Source: an uncultured Acidobacteriota bacterium (GTDB lineage Bacteria; Acidobacteriota; Thermoanaerobaculia; Multivoradales; UBA5704). From it: a DNA stretch of 64,000 bases. The stretch covers positions 416,001-480,000 of the forward strand of contig CAVYRF010000001.1 in NCBI GenBank assembly GCA_963770895.1. Direction: 5' to 3'. Below, piece by piece: positions 4,171 through 14,616 of the stretch. The position numbers and the translations under genes were made by a program. Within the stretch, counting starts at the first letter, position 1. Each line of letters starts with the position of its first letter. A model generated the notes under the pieces. The model saw nothing but the letters and a program-made list of their open reading frames with translations, was not told the DNA's origin and did not search any database.

Positions 4171-6048
4171 TCAGCTACAGGGCAACGCCGCTGTGTCCTG
4201 CACCGGTGCCGCGGCGGTGCCGTCCGTGTTGGCGTAGGACTTGTGAGCGCCGGTCTGCAGGTCGGTCACCACGGCGGTGAAGCCGACGTTGGTGCCGGCG
4301 GCGTAGAACAGCCAGTATTTCTGGTTGACGCTGCAGCCGTCGATGACCTTGATCAGCATCTCCGGGTTGTCGGCGCTGAAGAACCAGAAGAGACCGCCCT
4401 GCGCAACGCCCAGGCTGTTGAGGGCGATCGCGTGGCCGTTGCCCGCGCTGCCGCCGCCCTCCGCGGTCTTGTAGCTGGCCGTGATCTGAAAACGGCCATT
4501 GATGCACAGAGTGGTGCCGTTGGCGGTACAGGTGGCGGCCTCGGGCAAGGCATCGATCGCGGTCGGCGGGGGGCTCTGCTCGGCGCTCGCGGGGCGCCGG
4601 TCGCCCGCTTCGAGGTGGGCGCTGGTCGCCGCGGCGACGTCGCCAGCGGCGGCGTCTGGAGCAGCGGGCGCGGCGTCTCCCTGGGCGTCGCACGTGAAGG
4701 CGGCGGTGTCCTGTTGCGGCGGCGCGGCGGTCTCGTCGGTGTTCTGGTAGGTCTTGGTGCGAGGAGTCTTGGTGTCCTTGACGCTGACGGTGAAGCCGAC
4801 GTTGGTGGTCGCCGAGTAGAACAGCCAGAAATGTTGGTTGACCGAGCAGCCGTTGATGACCTTGATCAGCATCTCCGGGTTGTCGGCGTCAAAGAACCAG
4901 AACAGGCCACCTTCGGTGACGCCCAGGCTGGCGAGCGGGATCGCCTGGCCGTTGCCGGCGAGCCCGCCGCTCTGCGCCGTCTTGTAGGCGACGCCGATCT
5001 GCCAGCGCTTGTCGCCCGGCTTGTCGTCGATGCACAGGGTTGTCGCCGTCGCCACGCAAGCCGCGTTGTGGGGCAGTTCCACACGGCCCACCTTGTTGCC
5101 GCTCACCTCGGTGAACCACATGTTGCCGTCGGGCCCGGCGGTGATGCCGCCCGGACTGGAGTGCGCCGTGGGCACCGGATACTCCGTGACCTTGCCGGCG
5201 GTGGTCACCATGCCGATCTGATTGGCCTCGAACTCGGTGAACCAGAGGTTGCCATCGGGTCCGGCGGTGATGAAAACGCTACCCGCCGTCGAGGTCGGCA
5301 GCGGAAACTCGGTGATCACGCCCGCCGGGGTGATGCGCCCTAGGTTGTTGCCGGAGAGCTCGGTGAACCAGACATTGCCGTCGGGGCCGAGGGTGATCCC
5401 GGTTGGCGCGGGTTGGGCGCCGGCGTCGGGTAGCGCGAACTCGTGGAAGACGCCGGCCGTCGTGAGCCGCCCGACCTTGCCGGTGTTCTGCTCGGTGAAC
5501 CAGAGGTTGCCGTCGGCTCCCACCGTGATGCCGGCGGGTCCGGCGCCGCCGGTCGGCACGGCGAACTCCTTGCACGCGCCGGCGGTCGTGATGCGTCCGA
5601 TCTTGCTACCGTTGAGCTCGGTGAACCAGAGGTTGCCGTCGGGGCCGGCCACGATGTCCGCCGGTCCGGCCTGAGAGGTGGGTACGTCGAAGAGCGTCAC
5701 GGCGCCGGCGGTCGTGATGCGTCCGATCTGATTGCCTTCGTAGGCCGCGAACCACAGATTGCCGTCGGGCCCCGCCGTGATGCCGCCCGAAACCGGGCTC
5801 GACAGCGCGCTCGCGACCGGAAACTGATTGACCACCGTGCCGGCGGTGGTGATGCGGCCGACGGCGTTGCCCTCGAGCTCGGTGAACCAGAGGTCGCCGT
5901 CCGGACCGGCGGCGATGCCGGCCGGCGACACGCCGCTCGTCGGTACCGGAAACTCGTTGATCGTGATGGCGCCGGCGGGCGCCGCCGCGAGGGTCGCCAG
6001 GATGACTGCGAACACCGCCGCACGGATGTCGTCGCTGAAGGTTGCCAT
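4171..6048 (-). CDS. Secreted Vgb-like 7-bladed beta-propeller with two tandem C-terminal Cys-containing domains
   Basis: Signal peptide (AAVFAVILATLAAAPAGA) and seven GPDGNLWFTE-type repeats. Two copies of C..TTLCI...GGLFWFF.ADNPEMLIKVI.GCSVNQ..WLFY...TNVGFT...D...P.QDTAA..C. GGAG upstream of ATG 6048. Confidence 0.85.
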   Translation of the reverse strand: MATFSDDIRAAVFAVILATLAAAPAGAITINEFPVPTSGVSPAGIAAGPDGDLWFTELEGNAVGRITTAGTVVNQFPVASALSSPVSGGITAGPDGNLWFAAYEGNQIGRITTAGAVTLFDVPTSQAGPADIVAGPDGNLWFTELNGSKIGRITTAGACKEFAVPTGGAGPAGITVGADGNLWFTEQNTGKVGRLTTAGVFHEFALPDAGAQPAPTGITLGPDGNVWFTELSGNNLGRITPAGVITEFPLPTSTAGSVFITAGPDGNLWFTEFEANQIGMVTTAGKVTEYPVPTAHSSPGGITAGPDGNMWFTEVSGNKVGRVELPHNAACVATATTLCIDDKPGDKRWQIGVAYKTAQSGGLAGNGQAIPLASLGVTEGGLFWFFDADNPEMLIKVINGCSVNQHFWLFYSATTNVGFTVSVKDTKTPRTKTYQNTDETAAPPQQDTAAFTCDAQGDAAPAAPDAAAGDVAAATSAHLEAGDRRPASAEQSPPPTAIDALPEAATCTANGTTLCINGRFQITASYKTAEGGGSAGNGHAIALNSLGVAQGGLFWFFSADNPEMLIKVIDGCSVNQKYWLFYAAGTNVGFTAVVTDLQTGAHKSYANTDGTAAAPVQDTAALPCS

Positions 6049-6319
6049 AGCGCTCGTCTCCAAGGTCCTCGTGGAGGGGAATACCTGGTTGGCGACCTCG
6101 AGAGTTCGCCGCGGTTGACGCGAAGCAACGTCAAGGTAACACACGGTGCCCGGCCCGGCGTGGCGAGGCAAAGGGTGCGCCTGCCGGCTGCGGTGATGGC
6201 GGCGAGCTGGCCGGTTTTGAAGCGGCTTCAGGACCGGAGGCTCCGCCAGCAGACGCTGCCCGCCAGCTGGTGGCCAGGTGGGCGTCGGGATCGGTGGGCT
6301 CTCGGCCTACGCTTGCGCT

Positions 6320-9300
6320 TCAGGGGCTCGCGCCGGCAGCTGGCGCCGGCGCCTGGGCCGCCTGGGCCGCGGAGATCTTGATGGTGGAGAAGGGCGAGAG
6401 GGTGAGCGTGCCGGGGTCGGCGAAGAACCAGCGCACCACCTGGCCGGCGAGGTTCGACATGCCGGCCGGGCGCGCGGCGCTGGCACGCAGGCGGGCCAGG
6501 CGCTCGACGGGATGGTCGACCGGCACGGCGTTGCCGGCGTCGTCGACGGCGAAGCCGCCGACCGCCTCGGCGAGGTCGGCGAGCGCGGTGCTGTCGGCGG
6601 AGGAGGTCTCGGGCTGGTCCCAGACGCGCACGGTGCCGTCGTTGTCGACGGTCATGACGCGCGAGCCGTCGGGGCTGAAGGTGGCTCTGGTCACCCAGCC
6701 CTGGGGGGGCGCGTGCCAGAGCGGTTCGGCGAGCTGGTGGCAGGAATCGACGTCCCAGACCTGGGCGAAGCCGTCGGCCGAGCGGGCGAGGAATCGCTGG
6801 CCGTCGGCGCTGAGCTCGGCGACGAAAGGGGTTTCGGCGACCGGGGGATAGACCTGGGAGGCGAGTTGAATGCGGCAGAGGAGCCGCCCGTTCGCGATCT
6901 CCCGCACCTCGACCTCGCCACGCCCGAGCGTGGCGATCATTCGCGTCGCGTCCTGGCTGAAGCTCAGGGTCTGGAACCCGCTGTCGAACGGCACGGAGCT
7001 GCCCGTCGGCTTGCCGCTTGGCGCGAAGAACCTGAGCACATGGTCGGCAGCGAGGATGGCGATGAGCCTGGCATGGGGGCTCCAGAGTCCCACGATTGGG
7101 TTCGCCAGCTCGACGTGGCCGACCATGCGGCCCGTTTGCGTTGCCCACACCTGGAGTCCGGACTTCGCCCAGGTGAGGACAAAGCGGCCCTCGTCGTCGA
7201 TCTCGGGTCTTTTGTCGTCAAGTTGGCGTGTCGCCGGGATCTCTTTGCCGCTGCGCGCATCCCAGCTTTGGATCTGCCAACCGACCGCCCACCAGGGCCC
7301 CAGCGCCAGGAGCCGCTCGCCGTCCGCGCTCACCTGAGCCGAGGACAGCTCTCGCACCTGAGGCACCTTGATCACCGCGCTGAGGCTGCGACCCGTCCTG
7401 GCATCCCAGGCCTGCAGGGTGTTCCGCTGCGGGTCGGCCGCGACCACGGCCAGCCGTCCATCCGCCAGCAGGTTGGCCGACAGCACCGGCAGCCCGCCAG
7501 GAGACACGACGCTGCTTTCCCCGGTCGCGAGGTCCCAGAGCCGCACGGTTCCATCCTGGGTGACGGCGATCGCCTCGGCGCCCCGGCTGCCGAACAGGGC
7601 GTAGCGGACCGGCTGCGCCAGGAGCTGCGGGCGGGCGTATCGGTCGGGGCGCATGTCCCAGATCTCGGCCGTTCCGTCATCCGCGGCGCTCACCGCCTTG
7701 CGTCCGTCGCGGCTCCAGCCGACGACGTTGACGGGACCCTTGTGCCGCAGGGCTTGCATCGCAGTTTCGCCGGTGCGGGCATCCCACAGCCACGCGGCGG
7801 AGTCGCGCGAGCCGGTCAGCACCCATCGGCCGTCCGGGCTGAAGTGCGCCGTGGACACCAGCCTGTCGTGCGGGATCGGCCGCGGCGGCGACCCGGGGGC
7901 GTCGAGGTTCCACAAACGCACGACGCGGTCGGCGCAGACGGTGAGCAGCGTGTGGTCGTCGGGACTGAACTCGGCCCAGGTGACAGGCGCCTTGTGATCG
8001 TGAGTGGAAACCACTCGCAGCGTCGTGAGGTCCGCGATCCGCACCGTACCCTGGGCGCCGACGGTGAGCAGGCGGTCGCCCCGGTGGTTGAAGGCCACCA
8101 GGGTCGCATCCTTGCCGAGAGACGAGAGCTCCCCCCGGGCGGCGCCGGCGCGCCGATCGAACAGGAGCGGTGCTTCGGCGGTCGGCAGGACGACGAGCAG
8201 CGGGGGCTCGCCGATCACGGTATTGCCGGTGGCGGCGAACCGCTTGCCGTCCGGGCTCAAGGCCGCAACATGGTAGGGAGGGGTCAGACGCTCCTGGGTT
8301 CGAGCATCCCATAGCGTGGTGCCTTCGTACGAGCTGATCATGAGCCGGTCGCCGCGCGAGCTCCACGCCACGCCGTCCACGGGAGGGTAGACCTTCATCT
8401 CGCGACCGAGGGGGGCGCCGCTCCTGCCGTCCCAGATCCGTGCCACGCCATCCTGGCAGCCGGTGAGCACCCGGTCGCCGTCGGGGCTGAACGCGGCCGA
8501 GGTCGCCGCGCCGCCATGGCGCATCACGGCCAGGGGGGCGCCGTCGCGCACCCGCCAGAGTCGCGCGGTGCCGTCAAGCGAGGCCGTCAGCAGGCGCTCC
8601 CCGTCCGGGCTGAGCTCGGCGGCGGTGACCGCCCGGTCGTGCCGCACCCTCAGCACCGGCAGCGGCCAGCTCTCGTGCAGCAGGATGCCGAGGGCGCGGT
8701 GGCGGGCGTCGTCGCTGTCCTCTGGGCGCGACCTCATGATCGAGGCGAGGTAGGCCAGAGCCTGCGCGGCGCGGCCTTTTTCGATCAGGTTTCCCGCCGA
8801 ATCGAAGAGCGCCCGCTCGGCGCGCCGCTGGGCGCTATCCGCGGCTTTCTCAGCCGCCTGGCTGTGCCGCCACAGGACGGCGGCGGCGATCGCCAAAACG
8901 ACGGTGGCGACCAGCACCCAGCCGAGCACCAGCGCCAGCTTGCGGCTGCGCGCGAGCAGGCGGCGCGTCTCGCGCTCGCGCTCGCCGGCCTGCTGCGCCA
9001 GGCGGTCGGCCTCGCGCGCGTCTTCTTCCGCCTGGCGGCGGGCCTCGCGCTGGCGGCGCAGCTCGCGGCTCTCGCCGATGACCTCGGTCAGCACGTCGTG
9101 GGTGAGCTCGACCCAGTCGACGCCGTGGCGCTCCTCGATGCGCAGCAGGCGCCGGTCGCGCAGGGTGAGCAGGGCGGCGGCCGTGACGCCCGGCACGGCG
9201 ACGGCGTTGTCCCACGCGACGCTGTCGCGGTAGCCGGAGCGGGTGAGCAGACGGTCCTCGATGAAGGTGCGCATCTCGGGGGTGAGCCCGGCCAGGCTGG

Positions 9301-10429
9301 CCTCGTAGAAGCGCGTCAGGATCTCCTTCCACGAACCGGAGAGCAGGTCGAAGGTGATGGTGGCCTCGCCGCGGTCCCGCCGCCGGTTGTTGAGCTCGCG
9401 GCAGACCAGGCTGAGCAGGGTGGGGTCGACCGTGAGCTCGGCGAGCGGCGGCGGGCCGTCCGCGCCGGCCTGCCGCCCGGCAAGGCCCTGGCGTTCCGCC
9501 GCCGCGCCACCGGCGCCGGCCGTCTCCTCATGCTCCGCCGCCGCGGCGCCCGCCCCGTCCGCACCGCCCGCCTGGGCCCGGCCGGCGCCCGAGACGAAGC
9601 GCACGACCTTCTCCGCCACCTCCGGCGCGATGAGGTGGCCGCCGGCGCAGGTCACGACGCGCAGCGCCGCTTCGCCGGTCATGTGCCGCAGCGCCAGCCG
9701 GCTGGCTCCGAGCGAGCGCATGCGGGCGCGCAGGGTGTCGAGGTCGGCCAGGAAGTCCTGGCGCAGGCAGACCAGGATCTTGTAGTCGTGCCGTTCGGGC
9801 GAGAAGTCCGCGGCGAGCGCCGGCGCGGCGTCGAGGCGCGCCTTGACCGCCGCGGGCGGGCGGCCCTCGACCAGGTCGGCGAGCTCGGCGAGGAACGCCT
9901 CGCGGCCGGGGTCCTTTCTGCCCAGGGTGAAGATCTCCTCGAACTGGTCGAAGACCAGCAGCGGCACGACGATGCGGTTGGCCGCGCTCCAGAAGTTGGC
10001 GCCCGCGCGGTGGAGCGACTCCCAGAGGGTCTCGCCGGGCGGCAACGGCGGCGCCTCGACCCGCGCGTCCGCCGCCGCGGCAAGGATCGCGTCCCGCACC
10101 TGGTCGACCAGCCCCCGCTCGGCGGGGCCGCGCTCGCCCGCCCAGGCCAGCCGGATGGCGACCGGCAGCACCTCCTGCCGGCGCAGCCGCGGGAAGAGGC
10201 CGGCCTGGAGGAGCGAGGTCTTGCCCAGCCCGGAACGGCCGTAGACCACGGTGGCACGGGTCGATTCCCGCATCACCGTGCGGCGCAGCTCCTCGATCTC
10301 GTCTTCGCGGCCGAAGAAGAAGGCCTGGTCCTGCTCGCGGAACGACGGCAGCCCCGGCCAGGGATTGTCGCGATCGACCTGCCCGCCCTGGGCGGCAAGG
10401 GACGCCGGCGCCGGCGCGGCCTCCGTCAC
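6320..10429 (-). CDS. nSTAND1-type P-loop NTPase - coiled coil - TM helix - WD40 repeats
   Basis: NPWPGLPSF...FFFGREDEI, Walker A GRSGLGKTS, Walker B LLVFDQFEEIF, ELTHDVL, hydrophobic LALVLGWVLVATVVLAIAAAVLW, many FSPDG...TAS.DGTARLW repeats. GTG 10429 overlaps the upstream TGA (GTGA). Confidence 0.88.
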   Translation of the reverse strand: MTEAAPAPASLAAQGGQVDRDNPWPGLPSFREQDQAFFFGREDEIEELRRTVMRESTRATVVYGRSGLGKTSLLQAGLFPRLRRQEVLPVAIRLAWAGERGPAERGLVDQVRDAILAAAADARVEAPPLPPGETLWESLHRAGANFWSAANRIVVPLLVFDQFEEIFTLGRKDPGREAFLAELADLVEGRPPAAVKARLDAAPALAADFSPERHDYKILVCLRQDFLADLDTLRARMRSLGASRLALRHMTGEAALRVVTCAGGHLIAPEVAEKVVRFVSGAGRAQAGGADGAGAAAAEHEETAGAGGAAAERQGLAGRQAGADGPPPLAELTVDPTLLSLVCRELNNRRRDRGEATITFDLLSGSWKEILTRFYEASLAGLTPEMRTFIEDRLLTRSGYRDSVAWDNAVAVPGVTAAALLTLRDRRLLRIEERHGVDWVELTHDVLTEVIGESRELRRQREARRQAEEDAREADRLAQQAGERERETRRLLARSRKLALVLGWVLVATVVLAIAAAVLWRHSQAAEKAADSAQRRAERALFDSAGNLIEKGRAAQALAYLASIMRSRPEDSDDARHRALGILLHESWPLPVLRVRHDRAVTAAELSPDGERLLTASLDGTARLWRVRDGAPLAVMRHGGAATSAAFSPDGDRVLTGCQDGVARIWDGRSGAPLGREMKVYPPVDGVAWSSRGDRLMISSYEGTTLWDARTQERLTPPYHVAALSPDGKRFAATGNTVIGEPPLLVVLPTAEAPLLFDRRAGAARGELSSLGKDATLVAFNHRGDRLLTVGAQGTVRIADLTTLRVVSTHDHKAPVTWAEFSPDDHTLLTVCADRVVRLWNLDAPGSPPRPIPHDRLVSTAHFSPDGRWVLTGSRDSAAWLWDARTGETAMQALRHKGPVNVVGWSRDGRKAVSAADDGTAEIWDMRPDRYARPQLLAQPVRYALFGSRGAEAIAVTQDGTVRLWDLATGESSVVSPGGLPVLSANLLADGRLAVVAADPQRNTLQAWDARTGRSLSAVIKVPQVRELSSAQVSADGERLLALGPWWAVGWQIQSWDARSGKEIPATRQLDDKRPEIDDEGRFVLTWAKSGLQVWATQTGRMVGHVELANPIVGLWSPHARLIAILAADHVLRFFAPSGKPTGSSVPFDSGFQTLSFSQDATRMIATLGRGEVEVREIANGRLLCRIQLASQVYPPVAETPFVAELSADGQRFLARSADGFAQVWDVDSCHQLAEPLWHAPPQGWVTRATFSPDGSRVMTVDNDGTVRVWDQPETSSADSTALADLAEAVGGFAVDDAGNAVPVDHPVERLARLRASAARPAGMSNLAGQVVRWFFADPGTLTLSPFSTIKISAAQAAQAPAPAAGASP

Positions 10430-11823
10430 GCCGAGGCGCCCTTCCTCTCCTGCTGCTGGTACTTCCGGTAGAGATCCCGCAGCCGCTCGACGAAGGATGG
10501 GTCGGCCTGCCCGGCAGGCAGGCGCGTCCAGTGGAGGGCGCGGAACAGCTCGGGCAGCGCCGCCTCGCTCGCCGAGACGTCGTCGACCGCCACCGGCAGG
10601 ATGAACGGCCGGTTGGGCGGGAAGAGCGGCGCCAGGTCGACCGCCTCGTTCCATTCGCGGCGGAAGAAGCGCGGGGCGTCGGTCAGGGTGTGGCGCGAGA
10701 GGACCGGCACGAACAGGCTGGAACCCTGGATGGCGCGCCGGATCTTGAGGCGGTAGTCGTCGCCCCCTTCGAGCGCCTGCTTGTCGAACCAGACGTCCAG
10801 GTTGCGGGACGCGAGGGCGTCGTGGATGGCGCGCGCCGCCTCCAGGTCCTCGCTCGCATAGGAGAGGAAGATGGCGCCGGGCTGCATCTCGGCGCGGCCC
10901 GGGCGCGGCGCCCCGGCGGCGGGGTCGCCGGCGGCGGAGGCGCCGGGCGCGGGCGCGGGATGCGCTTCGCCCCAGCGCCGCGCCAGCTCTTCGACGAACA
11001 GCGCGGCGCCGCCGGGGAAGACCTGGATGCCGGGACCGAAGTGGTGCAGGAAGAGCGCCAGGCCTTCTTCGCCGACTCCCGCTCGGTCGGCGAACACGTC
11101 GGTCTTGCCGCGCCGCGCCGACAGGCGCGCGCCGGTCCCGATGCGCAGGAAAAAGCGCGTCAGCCAGTCGGGGAAGTTGGTGCCGAGCACCAGCAGCGGC
11201 CGCTCGGCCAGCTCGTCGAGGACGCGCGGCCGCGTGTCCTCGGTCTGCAGGGAGTGGACGAACTCCAGCCGGTCCTCCTCGGTCAGCGCATATTCGCTCG
11301 ACAGCGCCGAGAGCTTGCCGAAAAGATGAAGGACGGCGGCGTCGCGCTCGCCGATGTCGCCGGGATCCACCGCCCCCGGAGAATACGAGAAGACCTCGGT
11401 GCGCGGCTCGCCGTCGAACCGCACCTGGTCGAGCGCCGCCTTGAGCAGCGAATCGAAGGTGGTCGAGATGAACAGCCGCAGCCGGGGAATGCCGGCGAGC
11501 AGCAGCAGCGGGCGCGGCAGCGGCAGCTCCTGCGGCGGGGGCATCGCCGACTTGAGCGCGGAGTAGAGGTACTGGACGTTGCCGCCGCGCGCCAGAAACC
11601 GGTAGGCCACCGCGTCGAGCTCGGCGCCGGCCGGATAGGCGTCGACCTCGACCTTGAGCCGCGCCGCCAGGCGCTCGGCGAGCAGCCGGTTGAGCGGCAC
11701 GTCACCGCCCGCTAGCGGCAGCGTGAGCAGGCCCTGGCCGACCACGGTCACCACGCGCCCCTCTTCGATGTACTCCAGGAGCTGTTCCCAGAAGAGCTCG
11801 AGGTCCGCCGCGGAAGCGCTCAT
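10426..11823 (-). CDS. SIR2-like domain + TIR domain protein
   Basis: N-terminal SIR2_2-like pattern (VVTVVGQGL, FISTTFDSLL, VLHLFGKL, LLVLGTNFPDW). C-terminal TIR (IFLSYASED, VWFDK, GGDDY..KI..AI, LFVPVLS, FFRREW). Start ATG 11823. Confidence 0.85.
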   Translation of the reverse strand: MSASAADLELFWEQLLEYIEEGRVVTVVGQGLLTLPLAGGDVPLNRLLAERLAARLKVEVDAYPAGAELDAVAYRFLARGGNVQYLYSALKSAMPPPQELPLPRPLLLLAGIPRLRLFISTTFDSLLKAALDQVRFDGEPRTEVFSYSPGAVDPGDIGERDAAVLHLFGKLSALSSEYALTEEDRLEFVHSLQTEDTRPRVLDELAERPLLVLGTNFPDWLTRFFLRIGTGARLSARRGKTDVFADRAGVGEEGLALFLHHFGPGIQVFPGGAALFVEELARRWGEAHPAPAPGASAAGDPAAGAPRPGRAEMQPGAIFLSYASEDLEAARAIHDALASRNLDVWFDKQALEGGDDYRLKIRRAIQGSSLFVPVLSRHTLTDAPRFFRREWNEAVDLAPLFPPNRPFILPVAVDDVSASEAALPELFRALHWTRLPAGQADPSFVERLRDLYRKYQQQERKGASA

Positions 11824-11935
11824 GGAGTGTGCGACAAAAATATGCCGGGCGCGGCGTTCCGTCAATCCAGGGCACGCGCTATGCTGCCCGCCATCCGTCC
11901 AACCCGTTTCCTCGACCTGACCTGCAGGAGGGAGC

Positions 11936-12898
11936 ATGCCGCACGTCACTTTCGTCCATGGCATCGCCAACAAGCCGCCCGCCGACCAGCTGCTCGACGT
12001 CTGGCGCCGCGGCCTCGCCGCGAGCGACGGCATCGACCTGGGCGCCCAGGGGTTCACCTCCTCGATGGTGTATTGGGCCGACGTGATGTACGCCAGCCCG
12101 CTCGCCGAGGCCGCGGTCGAGCGCGCCACCAACGAGGCCGCGAGCGAGGCGCTGGAGCCCGAGCCGGTGGATCTCGGCCTCGACGAGATGGACGCCGGGG
12201 AACGGTCCTGGGTCGCCGGGCTCGCCGCCAAGCTGGCCGTGCCGCTCGCCGTCGACGACGTGGTGGCCGCCGCCGCCCCGGGGCCGCTGCGCGACACCCT
12301 GGAGCGCATCCCGCTGCCGTGGCCGATCAAGGAGCGCATCATGAAAAGGTTCCTGCGCGACGTCCACCACTACCTCTTCGACGTCGACTACAGCCCGCGG
12401 CCGGGGGACACCTACCGGGTGCAGGAGGTGATCCGCGGGCGCATGATCGCGGCGCTGGCGGAGGGCGCCTCGCAACCGCCGCCGCATGTCGTGGTCAGCC
12501 ACAGCATGGGGACGGTGATCGCCTACGACTGCCTGATGCGGGTCGCCGCCGCCCCGGCCGTCGACGGCCTGATGACCCTCGGCAGCCCGCTCGGTCTCGA
12601 CGAGATCCAGGACAAGCTGAAGCCCGAATGGAGCCGCGACGACGGCTTTCCGCTCGCCAAGCTGCGCGGCCGCTGGGTCAACGTCTTCGACCGCCTCGAC
12701 CCGGTGGCCGGTTTCGATCCCGAGATCGCCAACGACTATCGCCGGGCGGGCCGCGCGGCGGTGGAAGACCTCAACGAGCAGAACCACGGCGCCTGGCGGC
12801 ACGACGTCAGCAAGTACCTGGCGGGGCCCGGGCTGCGCGGCAAGCTGGGCGAGCTGCTCGGGCTCACCGGTGCCGCGGCATCCGCGGCGGAAAGCTGA
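11936..12898 (+). CDS. Alpha/beta hydrolase
   Basis: FVHGI oxyanion motif, nucleophile elbow SHSMG, TLGSPLG, WVNVFDRLDPV (Asp), WRHDVSKYL (His). SD GGAGGGAG upstream. Confidence 0.85.
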   Translation: MPHVTFVHGIANKPPADQLLDVWRRGLAASDGIDLGAQGFTSSMVYWADVMYASPLAEAAVERATNEAASEALEPEPVDLGLDEMDAGERSWVAGLAAKLAVPLAVDDVVAAAAPGPLRDTLERIPLPWPIKERIMKRFLRDVHHYLFDVDYSPRPGDTYRVQEVIRGRMIAALAEGASQPPPHVVVSHSMGTVIAYDCLMRVAAAPAVDGLMTLGSPLGLDEIQDKLKPEWSRDDGFPLAKLRGRWVNVFDRLDPVAGFDPEIANDYRRAGRAAVEDLNEQNHGAWRHDVSKYLAGPGLRGKLGELLGLTGAAASAAES

Positions 12899-12909
12899 GG
12901 CGCGGCGCC

Positions 12910-14616
12910 ATGAGCTGGAACGAGGAGGACTACCTGGCGCGGCTCGCCGCGGCCATCGAGCGCTTTGACCGCGCCGGCGCCACCCGCCTGGTCGACGAGC
13001 TGGCCGCGGCGCTCGACCAGGGCGAGGCGCCGTCGCCCGCGGCGGCCCGCACGACGCTGCAGTCGCTGCGCCGCAAGTGCCTTTTCGACCTGATGGAGCG
13101 CGCCGCGGTGGCGCTGCGCCAGGCGGGACGGGACGAGGCGCAGATCCGCCGCCAGCATGCCCAGGCGCTGATCGACCAGGGGAAGCTGACGGCGGCGATC
13201 GACCTGCTCGAAGGGCTCGTCGCCCGCACCGCCGGGGACCCCGCCGAAAACGGCGAGGCGCGCGGCCTGCTCGGCCGCGCCTGCAAGCAGCTGTACATTG
13301 GCGCGGTCGGCGGTGCCGCCGGCGGCAGCGAGCCCGCCCGGTCCGGCGCCGGCGCGCGGCGCGCGGCGCAGCGGCACCTGGCGCGCGCCGTCGAGGCCTA
13401 CCGCACGGGCTACGTCGCCGACCCCGCGGGCCGCCTCTGGCACGGCATCAATACCGTGGCGCTGGTCTGCCGGGCGGGCCGCGACGGCGTGGAACTCGCG
13501 GCCGCCCCCGACCCCATGGCGCTGGCGCGCGAGATCCTGGCGCGGATCGGCGGCCCGCGCCAGGCGGTGGCGGCGTGGGACGTGGCGACCGCGGCCGAGG
13601 CCTGCGTCGCCCTCGGCCGGCCCGAGGAGGCCCTGCTGTGGATCGGCGAATACGTGCAGCGGCCGGAGGCCGACGCCTTCGAGCTCGCGAGCACCCTGCG
13701 CCAGCTGACCGAGGTCTGGCAGCTGAACCTGGCGACGCCGCCGGGCTCGCTGCTGCTGCCGCTCCTGCAATCGAACCTCCTGGTGCGCAAGGGGGGCCGG
13801 GTGGAGCTCGCGCCCGGAGAGCTGGGCCAGGCCATCGACCGCAGCCGCGAGGCCGCCGGCGCGGCCGAGCAGGCGACCGGCGAGCAGCTCGAGAAGATCC
13901 TCGGCCGCGACGGGGTGGTGACGCTCAAGTGGTACCAGACCGGCCTCGAGCGCTGCCGCACGGTGGCGCAGGTGCGCACCCGGCTCGACGAAGGCGTCGG
14001 CACCGGCTTCCTGGTGCGCGGCGGCGACTTCGCGGCCGGCCTTGCCGGGCAGATCCTGCTGCTGACCAACGCCCACGTGGTGAGCGCCGATCCCGCGGTG
14101 CAGAAAGAGCACGGGTCGCTCGATCCCGGCGACGTCCAGATCGTCTTCGAGGCGCTCCCCGGCACCGCCGGGCAGAGCTACCGCGCCGCCCGCCTGCTCT
14201 GGACCTCCCCTCCCGAGGAGCTCGACGCCACCCTCCTCGCGCTCGACCCGCCGCTGCCCGCCTCGGAGTGCTTCCCGCTCGCCCGCCGCCTGCCGGTCGC
14301 CGACGGCCAGCAGAAGGTCTACGTCATCGGCCATCCCGGCGGCCGGTCGCTGTCGATCTCCTTGCACGACAACCTGTTGCTCGACCACGACGGCGAGCGT
14401 CTGATCCACTACCGCGCGCCGACCGAGGGGGGCAGCTCCGGCAGCCCGGTGTTCAACCAGCAATGGGACCTGCTCGGCCTCCATCACGCGGGCGGCTTCG
14501 CCGTGGCCCGGCTGCGGGGCCAGACCGGCACCTACGCCGCCAACGAGGGAATCTGGATCCAGCGCATCATCCAGGAGCTCCAGAAGGCGGGGCTGCAGGA
14601 AATCTGCGCTCCTTAG
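12910..14616 (+). CDS. TPR (MAP3K TRAF-binding/DUF4071-like) + trypsin-like serine protease
   Basis: Helical repeats EARGLLGRACKQLY, WHGINTVAL, WDVATAAEACVALG. Protease triad motifs GTGFLV, LLTNAHVV, LDATLL, TEGGSSGSPVFNQQWDLLGLHHAG. Starts 11 nt after the hydrolase stop. Confidence 0.87.
   Translation: MSWNEEDYLARLAAAIERFDRAGATRLVDELAAALDQGEAPSPAAARTTLQSLRRKCLFDLMERAAVALRQAGRDEAQIRRQHAQALIDQGKLTAAIDLLEGLVARTAGDPAENGEARGLLGRACKQLYIGAVGGAAGGSEPARSGAGARRAAQRHLARAVEAYRTGYVADPAGRLWHGINTVALVCRAGRDGVELAAAPDPMALAREILARIGGPRQAVAAWDVATAAEACVALGRPEEALLWIGEYVQRPEADAFELASTLRQLTEVWQLNLATPPGSLLLPLLQSNLLVRKGGRVELAPGELGQAIDRSREAAGAAEQATGEQLEKILGRDGVVTLKWYQTGLERCRTVAQVRTRLDEGVGTGFLVRGGDFAAGLAGQILLLTNAHVVSADPAVQKEHGSLDPGDVQIVFEALPGTAGQSYRAARLLWTSPPEELDATLLALDPPLPASECFPLARRLPVADGQQKVYVIGHPGGRSLSISLHDNLLLDHDGERLIHYRAPTEGGSSGSPVFNQQWDLLGLHHAGGFAVARLRGQTGTYAANEGIWIQRIIQELQKAGLQEICAP

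Follow-up and report, generated by a model that had tools for sequence, protein, structure and literature searches.

The locus consists of four genes, A to D, arranged as two tightly coupled pairs that lie back to back within the window (the whole 64,000-nucleotide stretch that was analysed). Genes A and B are encoded on the minus strand and genes C and D on the plus strand, with the following features:

6320..10429, minus strand: gene B, nSTAND1 NTPase, single TM helix and WD40 propellers (1369 aa, GTG start; Pfam)
8870..8938, minus strand: TM segment of B, residues 498-520 (23 uncharged residues; Kyte-Doolittle 19-residue mean 2.73)
10426..11823, minus strand: gene A, degenerate SIR2-like domain and TIR domain (465 aa; Pfam SIR2_2, TIR_2)
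10507..10872, minus strand: TIR domain of A, residues 318-439 (Pfam TIR_2, 69.3 bits)
11824..11935, no strand: divergent spacer between A and C (112 bp)
11936..12898, plus strand: gene C, alpha/beta hydrolase, lipase/esterase-like (320 aa; Pfam Abhydrolase_6)
12092..12301, plus strand: acidic, low-confidence insertion of C, residues 53-122 (alignment and AF2 model)
12910..14616, plus strand: gene D, TPR-S helical solenoid and trypsin-like serine protease (568 aa; Pfam TPR-S, Trypsin_2)
12922..13878, plus strand: TPR-S solenoid of D, residues 5-323 (AF2 model; family signature residues)

The A/B junction is a 4-nt overlap, GTGA at 10426-10429, made up of the TGA of A and the GTG of B, while C and D are separated by 11 nt (12899-12909). 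The spacer contains a minus-strand sigma-70-like site at 11865..11837 (one found against 0.2 expected) and a GGAGGGAG stretch immediately 5' of the ATG of C. The original prediction had placed the four genes and described the overlap, the gap and the 112-bp divergent spacer; the gene coordinates agree, all three junctions hold and every one of its domain calls was confirmed by Pfam. Because the pairs are divergently transcribed here, they do not form one operon, and since both are conserved elsewhere (see below) the arrangement goes beyond chance. The genes flanking the locus in the window are ordinary (a methyltransferase, a Vgb-lyase-like propeller, an ABC transporter and a penicillin amidase), and no defence island was seen in these flanks.

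Domains and catalytic residues of the four proteins

The N-terminal part of protein A matches Pfam SIR2_2 (31.1 bits, residues 117-227). When A is profile-aligned to KomC, a SIR2 NADase, its Phe168 pairs with the KomC His called H146 in PDB mutant entries and Thr122 pairs with the Asn of the KomC TTNYD motif; across A homologues the His column is occupied by F, L, M or Y. These substitutions support the earlier description of the domain as a pseudo-SIR2, and A was rejected as an active SIR2 NADase of the ThsA, KomC or DSR type because it lacks the two catalytic residues of that fold, His and Asn. In the TIR domain, Glu390 shares an alignment column with the Glu found at position 77 in SPARTA TIR-APAZ chains, which we take to be catalytic, and this column is Glu in 8/9 sequences of the A family. 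Among solved structures, this TIR is most closely related to the TIR-APAZ chains with which short Argonaute systems deplete NAD+.

Protein B contains an nSTAND1 domain (PF20703; 101.1 bits against a cut-off of 27.1), which covers residues 23-260 and profile positions 1-197 of 379, with a Walker A motif GRSGLGKTS from residue 64 and a Walker B motif LLVFDQFEE from residue 157, as well as WD40 repeats (158.8 bits). The hydrophobic segment that had been noticed in the sequence is real (residues 498-520, Kyte-Doolittle mean 2.73) and is flanked by seven K/R residues on its N-side and three on its C-side. One TM helix stands behind the NTPase at an equivalent position in 12/12 TIR-linked nSTAND1 proteins examined, so the repeat sensor is predicted to lie outside the cytoplasm; for B this topology would put the NTPase inside the cell and a WD40 sensor of ~850 residues outside. 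PPC domains are typical of secreted proteins, and the B-type protein of locus L025 has one in its part beyond the TM helix. Identity to B is 75-76% in the NTPase part and 49-51% in the WD40 part for L056-L058, and 73% and 65%, respectively, for L059; judged by these values the sensor part is evolving faster than the NTPase part.

Protein C scores just over the Pfam threshold for Abhydrolase_6 (26.7 bits, cut-off 26.3). Its AF2 model (pLDDT 73.2, pTM 0.76) matches a broad, nearly tied group of alpha/beta-hydrolase folds comprising Nir2 DDHD, lipases, LCAT/LPLA2 and thioesterases (Z 11-13). Residues H8, G9, S190, D252, D255 and H289 are invariant in 21/21 sequences, and the invariance of the catalytic residues identifies C as an enzyme rather than a scaffold. 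All 21 homologues carry an insert of 69-76 aa; Asp+Glu make up 28% of it, versus 13% across the remainder of the protein, and in the model of C the pLDDT falls below 50 at residues 65-75 and 98-127. Protein D combines TPR-S (PF20308; 58.1 bits, cut-off 27.6) with Trypsin_2 (74.7 bits), and its AF2 model (pLDDT 88.1) consists of helices (5-323), a linker (322-338) and a protease (339-560) whose fold resembles the FAM111A, V8, Spl and DegS proteases. The triad H389, D439 and S510 is invariant (30/30 sequences). Within the TPR-S solenoid, Y164, N181 and W223 are invariant in 12/12 TPR-S proteins with differing partner domains, and across the same 12 proteins the conservation of E116, G122, K126, G179, T227 and T262 is 90% or higher. 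From their sequences, the TIR of A, the NTPase B, the hydrolase C and the protease D all look catalytically active.

Occurrence of the pairs alone and together

Each pair is conserved as a unit in its own right. A B homologue follows the A homologue in 8/8 related metagenome loci with room for it, and in Sinorhizobium TIR and nSTAND1 form one fused 1422-aa protein. In 24 of 42 D loci, from at least six phyla, gene C immediately precedes D, and 25 of the 52 longer C homologues (25 database clusters) are fusions of C, TPR-S and trypsin in the same order as in the gene pair. The pairs are also separable. Among the related metagenome loci, the five that extend 3 kb or more upstream of A (L056, L057, L058, L060 and L062) all have A-B without C-D, two further TIR and nSTAND1 pairs in this genome have no adjoining C-D, and C-D lacks a nearby TIR in 27/42 loci. 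In two Pedobacter genomes that bear C-D, searches with four TIR Pfam families gave no match, so that either TPR-S is able to work without a TIR or these copies are orphans. Either pair alone is far commoner than both together. The two pairs are independent evolutionary units, and their separability means that they do not constitute an obligate four-gene system.

The original prediction proposed neighbourhood conservation of all four genes as a check, and both pair types do occur together in four distant lineages: Acidobacteriota, Actinomycetota, Bacteroidota (as a seven-gene same-strand run) and a Sinorhizobium plasmid, pK101b, in which C-D is followed by TIR-nSTAND1. A SIR2-TIR gene and nSTAND1 accompany C-D in L023, L025, L043 and L048, and stand beside it in decayed form in L030; L055 is a short contig that carries only A and C. 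The TIR and D units share a strand in L043, L048 and L068, and the seven genes of L048 are all on one strand with gaps of no more than 28 nt. The co-located sets differ in gene order and their A proteins are only 21-26% identical to each other. The presence of the pairs together in distant bacteria suggests that one signals to the other. TIR genes are enriched around the C-D pair: one of some kind is found in the examined flanks of 15/42 D loci, and this genome has nine TIR_2 matches in 8.16 Mb. Many related loci also hold transposases and defence-type genes (DUF4062, NACHT and patatin), and because defence genes cluster in general the counts of co-location will be inflated.

Further TPR-S proteins are found in these neighbourhoods. 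Stand-alone TPR-S proteins adjoin the TIR-STAND pairs of L025, L043 and L048 and share an N-terminal domain that matches nothing in Pfam or NCBIfam; these proteins could be effectors of the type VIII Thoeris kind. In L029 and L048, TPR-S proteins have patatin phospholipases as neighbours; in the former, the place upstream of D that C usually takes is occupied by a patatin gene and a TPR-S gene.

A possible relay between the two pairs

The locus joins two self-contained conflict modules, probably of an anti-phage or abortive-infection type, that are probably in communication. We consider the chances evenly balanced that they work as a Thoeris-like relay, running from a STAND-controlled TIR to a TPR-S-gated protease and on to the hydrolase. 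STAND proteins oligomerise. B would be a STAND-type NTP switch, anchored in the cytoplasmic membrane by its one helix, which oligomerises when a trigger is sensed and gathers copies of A; the dead SIR2 domain would serve as an adaptor and the TIR would cleave NAD+. D would be a trypsin-like protease restrained by its TPR-S solenoid until an NAD+-derived TIR product, for example a cyclic ADP-ribose isomer, binds the solenoid and frees it. The freed protease would then activate the lipase-like serine hydrolase C, perhaps via a cut in the acidic insertion, and activated C would damage the cell.

It is possible, though we incline against it, that the pairs are simply independent neighbours. A and B would then be a full abortive-infection device, in which a STAND sensor sets off a TIR NADase that drains NAD+, and C and D a separate one whose TPR-S senses not a TIR product but some different cue, for example a protein or another nucleotide. 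The predominance of lone pairs, the Pedobacter genomes in which C-D occurs without a detectable TIR and the divergent transcription seen here all fit this explanation, as does the kinship of the A TIR with NAD+-depleting TIR-APAZ chains; with A-B mostly found alone, the TIR could be a plain NAD+-depleting effector. It sits less well with the recurrence of both pair types in four distant lineages with varied gene order and highly divergent A proteins, with their inclusion in one tight same-strand run in L048, with the TIR genes near D in 15 of the 42 loci, or with the tie between TPR-S and TIR signalling reported in the available text of a preprint (10.64898/2025.12.03.692087). A role outside phage defence is improbable: every domain family involved is known chiefly from anti-phage systems, many related loci contain transposases, DUF4062, NACHT and patatin genes, and nothing here indicates a specific alternative trigger. 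Such a role might be another conflict or stress task, for instance the sensing of envelope damage, neighbours or predators from outside, leading to regulated cell death or membrane remodelling, and it would agree with the extracytoplasmic sensor predicted in 12/12 family members, the PPC domain after the TM helix in L025, the non-defence genes flanking the locus in the window and the link to multicellular or social habits that Aravind papers draw for such systems, as far as the accessible part of one of them goes (PMC7159879).

The last step of the relay has an alternative of its own, which we regard as rather unlikely, namely that C is not the substrate of D but a fixed partner or co-factor of proteases, either as a second effector released with others or as a regulator of the protease. 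The C domain is joined to several protease types, to trypsin in 25 clusters and, in the form of distant C-like domains, to Peptidase_S8 by fusion or pairing in 12, and caspases are always accompanied by a neighbouring alpha/beta hydrolase in the part of Kaur et al. (2020) available to us (PMC7159879). It is also fused to unrelated effectors (Metallophos, Endonuclease I and Endonuclease_NS), so that, with nucleases and phosphoesterases joined to it, C may be something other than the terminal effector. The invariant catalytic residues nevertheless make C an enzyme, and the patatins beside TPR-S in L029 and L048, in the former at the usual place of C, fit a lipid-directed effector role. The original prediction had offered two alternatives, a single cascade of four genes or two co-located conflict modules, and the findings lie between them. 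The relay is a reasonable account where the pairs occur together, because they recur in four lineages and because the TPR-S of D is linked to TIR signalling, yet it cannot describe an obligate four-gene system; the modules do occur separately, yet the same pair types recur together.

A broader extension of the relay is speculative and in our view unlikely to hold in full. TIR-linked nSTAND1 proteins would be transmembrane NLR-like receptors, in which an outward sensor (WD40, ankyrin/Sel1 or PPC) prompts the cytoplasmic NTPase to assemble a TIR enzyme, whose NAD+-derived product switches on TPR-S-gated executioners, including a protease that unlocks a lipase-like hydrolase. An outward-facing sensor would detect a threat before or during its crossing of the envelope. 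If true, this would be an outside-in bacterial immune relay, Toll-receptor-like but built on a STAND switch and not on a fused TIR.

Comparison with known systems

B resembles the STAND proteins of Avs/AVAST and other bacterial NLR-like systems in having a Walker-motif NTPase and a C-terminal repeat sensor, together with a death effector domain (TIR/SIR2). In those systems, however, the effector is fused N-terminally, whereas nSTAND1 begins at residue 23 of B and the TIR is on the separate, translationally coupled A; the NTPase of B is also of the nSTAND1 clade and is divided from the sensor by a TM helix. None of the PADLOC Avs models matched B, the sole PADLOC match being PDC-S27 (E 0.007). 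The original prediction did not recognise the combination as a named system, and this stands with respect to PADLOC and NCBIfam, where none of the four proteins reached significance with a defence model at system level. It does not extend to the parts, since Aravind's group reportedly described both nSTAND1 and TPR-S, and TIR assemblies centred on TPRs have already been published. Burroughs and Aravind reportedly predicted TPR-S-centred systems that use an NAD+-derived signal (J Bacteriol, 2020). As outlined in a summary (10.1101/2023.05.26.542521), TIR, patatin, calcineurin-like and caspase genes adjoin the core of these systems, and each of these neighbours is seen around D homologues or in this genome.

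Two further precedents concern the C-D pair. In the MoxR-vWA ternary systems, caspase domains always have a neighbouring alpha/beta hydrolase according to the accessible text of Kaur et al. (2020; PMC7159879); these are likewise NTPase-regulated conflict systems with a peptidase constantly paired with an alpha/beta hydrolase gene, but there a caspase takes the part of the peptidase and MoxR-vWA that of the regulators. [quoted passage not shown] C, too, is encoded upstream of a trypsin-like protease, and it has a conserved acidic, low-confidence insert of ~70 aa; the partner enzyme there is a metallo-beta-lactamase-fold DNase, whereas C is an alpha/beta serine hydrolase. The resemblance to Lamassu hydrolase-protease variants drawn in the original prediction found no backing in PADLOC, where C matched 0 families and D matched only RT-Protease_XI and PDC-S45; NCBIfam likewise held no significant defence model for C.

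The closest parallel for the proposed relay lies in Thoeris. A is a TIR protein with Glu390, and the TPR-S of D is encoded in the divergent unit. The locus does not match the models of described Thoeris proteins in PADLOC and NCBIfam, against which A gave partial TIR-level matches far under cut-off (PADLOC ThsB1, E 0.0027; NCBIfam ThcB4, 16.7 bits against 220). In the available text of the preprint on type VIII Thoeris (10.64898/2025.12.03.692087), the system consists of a TIR protein and ThsI, which has a CMP-hydrolase domain and a TPR, and effectors with 'this TPR domain' are activated by canonical cADPR made by the TIR. Set against that description, the output domain here would be a trypsin-like protease with a hydrolase partner, where type VIII Thoeris has a nucleotide hydrolase. 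A STAND NTPase and a dead SIR2 go with the TIR, and the genes form two divergent units. What links the two is the TPR implicated in sensing TIR-made cADPR, represented here by the Pfam TPR-S domain of D and by the stand-alone TPR-S proteins in several related loci.

Four genes in two divergent pairs

The locus consists of two gene pairs, A–B and C–D, encoded as follows (window coordinates):

6320..10429, minus strand: B, 1369 aa, GTG start; Pfam nSTAND1 and WD40
10426..11823, minus strand: A, 465 aa; Pfam SIR2_2 and TIR_2
11936..12898, plus strand: C, 320 aa; Pfam Abhydrolase_6, a weak match (26.7 bits against a cut-off of 26.3)
12910..14616, plus strand: D, 568 aa; Pfam TPR-S and Trypsin_2

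The gene arrangement described in the original prediction is present in every detail: A and B overlap in a GTGA (the TGA stop of A and the GTG start of B), C and D are separated by 11 nt, and the pairs diverge from a spacer of 112 bp. This spacer contains one sigma-70-like site, in the minus-strand direction, and a purine-rich run ahead of the ATG of C. The G+C content of the window is approximately 70%, and the genes flanking the locus are ordinary (methyltransferase, Vgb-lyase-like propeller, ABC transporter, penicillin amidase, polysaccharide deacetylase and MacB). The propeller protein (4171-6171, minus strand; 388 bits) has a signal-like N-terminus and, judged by eye, a segment of about 100 residues that is duplicated C-terminal to the propeller. 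PADLOC and NCBIfam contained no system-level match to the four genes, just partial matches to the TIR and protease components, and zero matches to C. The simple GC3-based gene caller used here got some genes of high-GC loci wrong, A and D of the window among them, and neighbour lists may therefore miss genes.

Features of the four proteins

The SIR2 part of A aligns by profile to the SIR2 NADase KomC (E 1.9e-05). The KomC histidine (H146 in PDB mutant entries) falls on Phe168 of A and the asparagine of the KomC TTNYD motif on Thr122, and the histidine column is occupied by F, L, M or Y in A homologues. With these replacements, the SIR2 domain is very probably inactive, which agrees with its earlier designation as a pseudo-SIR2. 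The TIR part most closely resembles the TIR-APAZ chains of short Argonaute systems (E 6e-09 to 1e-07), whose Glu at position 77, taken here as the catalytic residue, lines up with Glu390 of A. Eight of nine family sequences have Glu in this column, and on this basis the TIR domain looks active.

B carries Walker A and Walker B motifs and, C-terminal to the NTPase module, a single uncharged segment of 23 residues flanked by seven Lys/Arg on the N side and three on the C side. A transmembrane helix is found in all 12 TIR-linked nSTAND1 proteins examined (B itself, four metagenome relatives, four proteins from distant phyla, two paralogues from the same genome and one Sinorhizobium fusion), and Lys/Arg are richer on the N-side flank in 11/11 of those with flanks counted. 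From this excess, the positive-inside rule predicts a cytoplasmic NTPase, with the part behind the helix lying outside. That part spans 172–1552 residues and contains WD40 repeats in B, WD40, ankyrin and Sel1 repeats in some relatives, and a PPC domain in the Acidimicrobiaceae locus L025. Among close relatives of B, the NTPase part is 75–76% identical and the WD40 part 49–51% (L056–L058); the corresponding values for L059 are 73% and 65%. The conserved helix, which goes beyond the original prediction, is the most surprising point, as it would mean that an NLR-like switch has its sensor outside the cytoplasm.

C has the features of an active-looking serine hydrolase, with His8-Gly9, Ser190 (in SHSMGT), Asp252, Asp255 and His289 invariant in 21/21 sequences. 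All 21 also contain an insert of 69–76 residues, 28% Asp+Glu compared to 13% elsewhere in the protein; the AF2 model is fair (pLDDT 73.2, pTM 0.76) except in this acidic insert, where its confidence is low. Fold matches are almost tied at Z 11–13 and include Nir2 DDHD, lysosomal phospholipase A2/LCAT, small lipases, acyl-protein thioesterases and carboxylesterases, so the model indicates a lipase/esterase-like protein to which no finer enzyme class can be assigned. The C profile had no significant sequence match in the PDB (best E 0.3). The family is modest in size, with 1625, 492 and 95 cluster representatives at E <=1e-3, 1e-10 and 1e-30, respectively.

The model of D is good (AF2, pLDDT 88.1) and shows 15 helices over residues 5–323, a floppy linker, and a trypsin fold at 339–560. 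A Foldseek search with the whole model, in which all matches were taken up by the protease domain, placed this fold nearest to the FAM111A, V8, Spl and DegS proteases. His389, Asp439 and Ser510 are invariant in 30/30 sequences, and the closest homologues are from Acidobacteriota assemblies. The helical solenoid bears the TPR-S signature that is common to TPR-S proteins whose partner domains differ widely: 12/12 such proteins have Tyr164, Asn181 and Trp223, and six more positions are at least 90% conserved. We take TPR-S to be the 'TPR scaffold predicted to recognise NAD+-derived signals' of Burroughs and Aravind 2020.

TPR-S proteins also occur in other settings. Stand-alone forms in five of the compared loci (L025:11666-13234, L029:7887-9920, L040:11740-13113, L043:7496-8947 and L048:3372-4664), for which NCBIfam holds no model, have a common N-terminal domain with the motifs MPFG and NVFYELGxRH. 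Neither Pfam nor NCBIfam gives a match for this domain, which may correspond to the hydrolase domain found in ThsI-type effectors. One of the proteins, that of L040, is similar to the central region of human ASK1 (MAP3K5; E 2e-17). The same genome encodes a second TPR-S protein (446 aa, 86.5 bits), immediately followed by a caspase (Peptidase_C14), at L065 (contig 2, 1741000-1757000; genes 6577-7569 and 7585-8925, both minus strand). The best NCBIfam model for this caspase is the 'EACC1-associated type' (95 bits, under the cut-off of 140), and the locus resembles another TPR-S/protease module, one that lacks an adjoining TIR gene. Where D homologues lack C, a Trypsin_2+PLD protein (936 aa) lies directly upstream in L031:2569-5379 and a Trypsin_2+TIR_2 protein (418 aa) lies beside them in L021 and L022. 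DUF4062 proteins, some fused to NACHT or iSTAND, occur near D homologues in L021, L022, L040, L045 and L051; a 2026 preprint reportedly renames DUF4062 as a NADase domain.

The pairs together and apart

Each pair is a conserved unit in its own right. A scan with D over one genome per species gave 42 loci from Acidobacteriota, Bacteroidota, Gammaproteobacteria, Actinomycetota, Planctomycetota, Gemmatimonadota and others. In 24 of them the gene immediately upstream, in the same orientation, encodes a C homologue; upstream sequence is lacking in two loci, and a third contains only a fragment of D. The C–D pair is widespread across phyla, with no entry in the defence libraries searched. Among 52 longer C homologues, 25 are fusions of C, TPR-S and trypsin (865–954 aa) with the domains in the order of the gene pair, and the remaining 27 have the following architectures:

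Domain architectures among longer C homologues (clusters)
C, TPR-S, trypsin and Metallophos: 3
C, TPR-S, trypsin and Endonuclease_NS: 4
C and Metallophos: 2
C and Endonuclease I: 1
Trypsin, Endonuclease_NS and C, without TPR-S: 2
Distant C-like domain and Peptidase_S8 (subtilase): 12
Trypsin only: 1
CHAT: 2

Since the C domain is fused to calcineurin-like phosphoesterases and nucleases and, in distant versions, to subtilases, C-type hydrolases may be general companions of proteases and other effectors. A candidate C–D fusion in L019 was rejected (stop codon at 9986-9988). A metagenome scan with A gave ten loci, and a B homologue follows A in all eight that have downstream sequence.

The two pairs also recur together. 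A SIR2_2+TIR_2 protein followed by nSTAND1 accompanies C–D in four further loci: L023 (Acidobacteriota) and L043 (Chitinophagaceae), on the same strand in both; L025, where the domain order is TIR-SIR2; and L048 (Bacteroidota), where seven genes lie on one strand with gaps of at most 28 nt, in the order TPR-S protein, patatin, SIR2-TIR, nSTAND1, C, D, patatin. At L030:2746-6031, an intact C–D pair is preceded by a SIR2_2 fragment and the two pieces of a split nSTAND1 gene, beside a DDE transposase, apparently a decayed sensor module next to a retained effector module. On the 773-kb plasmid pK101b of a cultured, non-pathogenic rhizobium, Sinorhizobium sp. K101, a C-like gene, a TPR-S-trypsin gene and a TIR-nSTAND1 fusion encoding one protein of 1422 aa follow each other on one strand (L068, 192167-207687), with a further TIR-annotated TPR protein 5 kb away; this plasmid is a convenient experimental source of both modules. 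More broadly, a TIR-domain gene of any architecture is present in the examined flanks (approximately 5 kb upstream and 3.5 kb downstream) of 15 of the 42 D loci (L015, L018, L019, L021, L022, L023, L025, L027, L034, L038, L040, L043, L047, L048 and L053), a count which overstates specificity because defence genes cluster. It includes matches slightly below the Pfam cut-off (L043 and L047), one neighbour gene counted twice within a single assembly (L021 and L022), and TIR genes beyond the standard flank in L023 and L025, included because tblastn flagged them. The genome as a whole has nine TIR_2 and two TPR-S matches in 8.16 Mb.

Plain co-location of two independent pairs, which we regard as the lesser but still substantial possibility, would fit the many loci where one pair stands alone. 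C–D is missing from 5/5 metagenome loci with at least 3 kb of sequence upstream of A (L056, L057, L058, L060 and L062), in four of which A is 78–83% identical to that of the window; only the short L055 has C in the divergent position. Two more A–B-type pairs are found on contig 2 of the same genome, both with a transmembrane helix in the NTPase and neither with C–D alongside. L067 (near 5.681 Mb, between priA and accA) has a Pfam-confirmed SIR2_2+TIR_2 protein with nSTAND1; L066 (near 5.507 Mb, adjoining a transposase) has a TIR protein with nSTAND1-WD40, the N-terminal part of which resembles the SIR2 part of A by tblastn only. A proteins from C–D-linked loci are just 21–26% identical to A of the window, and these unlinked paralogues are closer (33–41%), so the association is either old with many losses or has been made repeatedly. 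Conversely, 27/42 D loci have no TIR gene within the flanks examined. When five such genomes were searched whole, TIR_2 genes were found elsewhere in three, and two Pedobacter genomes had no match to TIR_2, TIR, ThsB_TIR or CAP12-PCTIR_TIR, DUF4062 being the only match (above cut-off in one genome). The cascade originally proposed, from sensor through TIR signal and TPR-gated protease to hydrolase, is reasonable in that the pairs recur together, but the four genes are not a fixed four-gene system, since the pairs also occur alone. On balance we give functional coupling of A–B and C–D about an even chance. A role other than phage defence seems improbable. The locus is built from already described parts; nSTAND1 was named by Kaur et al. 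2021 (PMC8195603) as a STAND clade of counter-invader systems.

A possible activation route and its relation to known systems

We infer all of the activation steps that follow, the observations themselves being of sequence features. If the pairs are coupled, B would sit in the membrane with its WD40 part sensing a trigger, and, as B assembles in an NTP-driven manner, it would recruit A via the dead SIR2 domain or by direct contact. Active sites would then arise from the TIR domains of A, and their cleavage of NAD+ would both deplete it and yield ADP-ribose-derived products, one of which would bind the TPR-S of D and free the protease. D would act on C, perhaps within the acidic insert at residues 53–122, and C could then attack lipids or another ester substrate, stopping the cell. 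Whether C is a substrate or a co-factor of D is a separate question from that of coupling, co-location or a non-phage role. Three runs of a D+C complex prediction scored 0.48, 0.00 and 0.11, which speaks neither for nor against binding. Because each pair also occurs alone, A–B must be able to act by itself, by NAD+ depletion, and C–D must be able to answer to another signal source or another ligand. Coupling, if real, would join NLR-like STAND sensing, TIR second-messenger signalling and proteolytic unlocking of a latent effector, so far mostly studied separately, and would give the TPR-S receptor family a protease-plus-lipase output. If the pairs are independent, they are still two tidy candidate defence modules without names.

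The helix in B and its relatives raises the question of whether phage or other threats are sensed from outside the cytoplasm by an NLR-like switch. In a literature search on STAND NTPases with a transmembrane helix, the one paper found to treat periplasmic sensors linked to STAND proteins was PMC10907252, which proposes such a predicted location for other proteins. A full-text search found no paper on 'TPR-S' with TIR and trypsin, and the hydrolase plus TPR-S-protease type may already be listed in Yirmiya et al. 2025 or Burroughs and Aravind 2020. According to Liu et al. 2023 (10.1101/2023.05.26.542521), TPR-centred assemblies stand alone in 29/78 cases and occur with TIR in 28/78, other partners being patatin, YspA, calcineurin and caspase. 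Patatin, calcineurin-like and caspase partners are also seen here: patatin beside TPR-S proteins in L029 and L048, and calcineurin-like genes after D in L019 and L039 and fused in three clusters. In the systems of Kaur et al. 2020 (PMC7159879), caspases are always accompanied by an alpha/beta hydrolase gene. Type VIII Thoeris effectors, as described in Yirmiya et al. 2025 (10.64898/2025.12.03.692087), combine a CMP-hydrolase domain with this TPR and are specifically activated by canonical cADPR from the partner TIR. Finally, PMC12799240 describes sensor-fused trypsin-like proteases whose target is a nuclease proenzyme encoded upstream, which they cleave in disordered insertions that gate it, and these nuclease-protease pairs are a precedent for the proposed proteolytic step of D on C.
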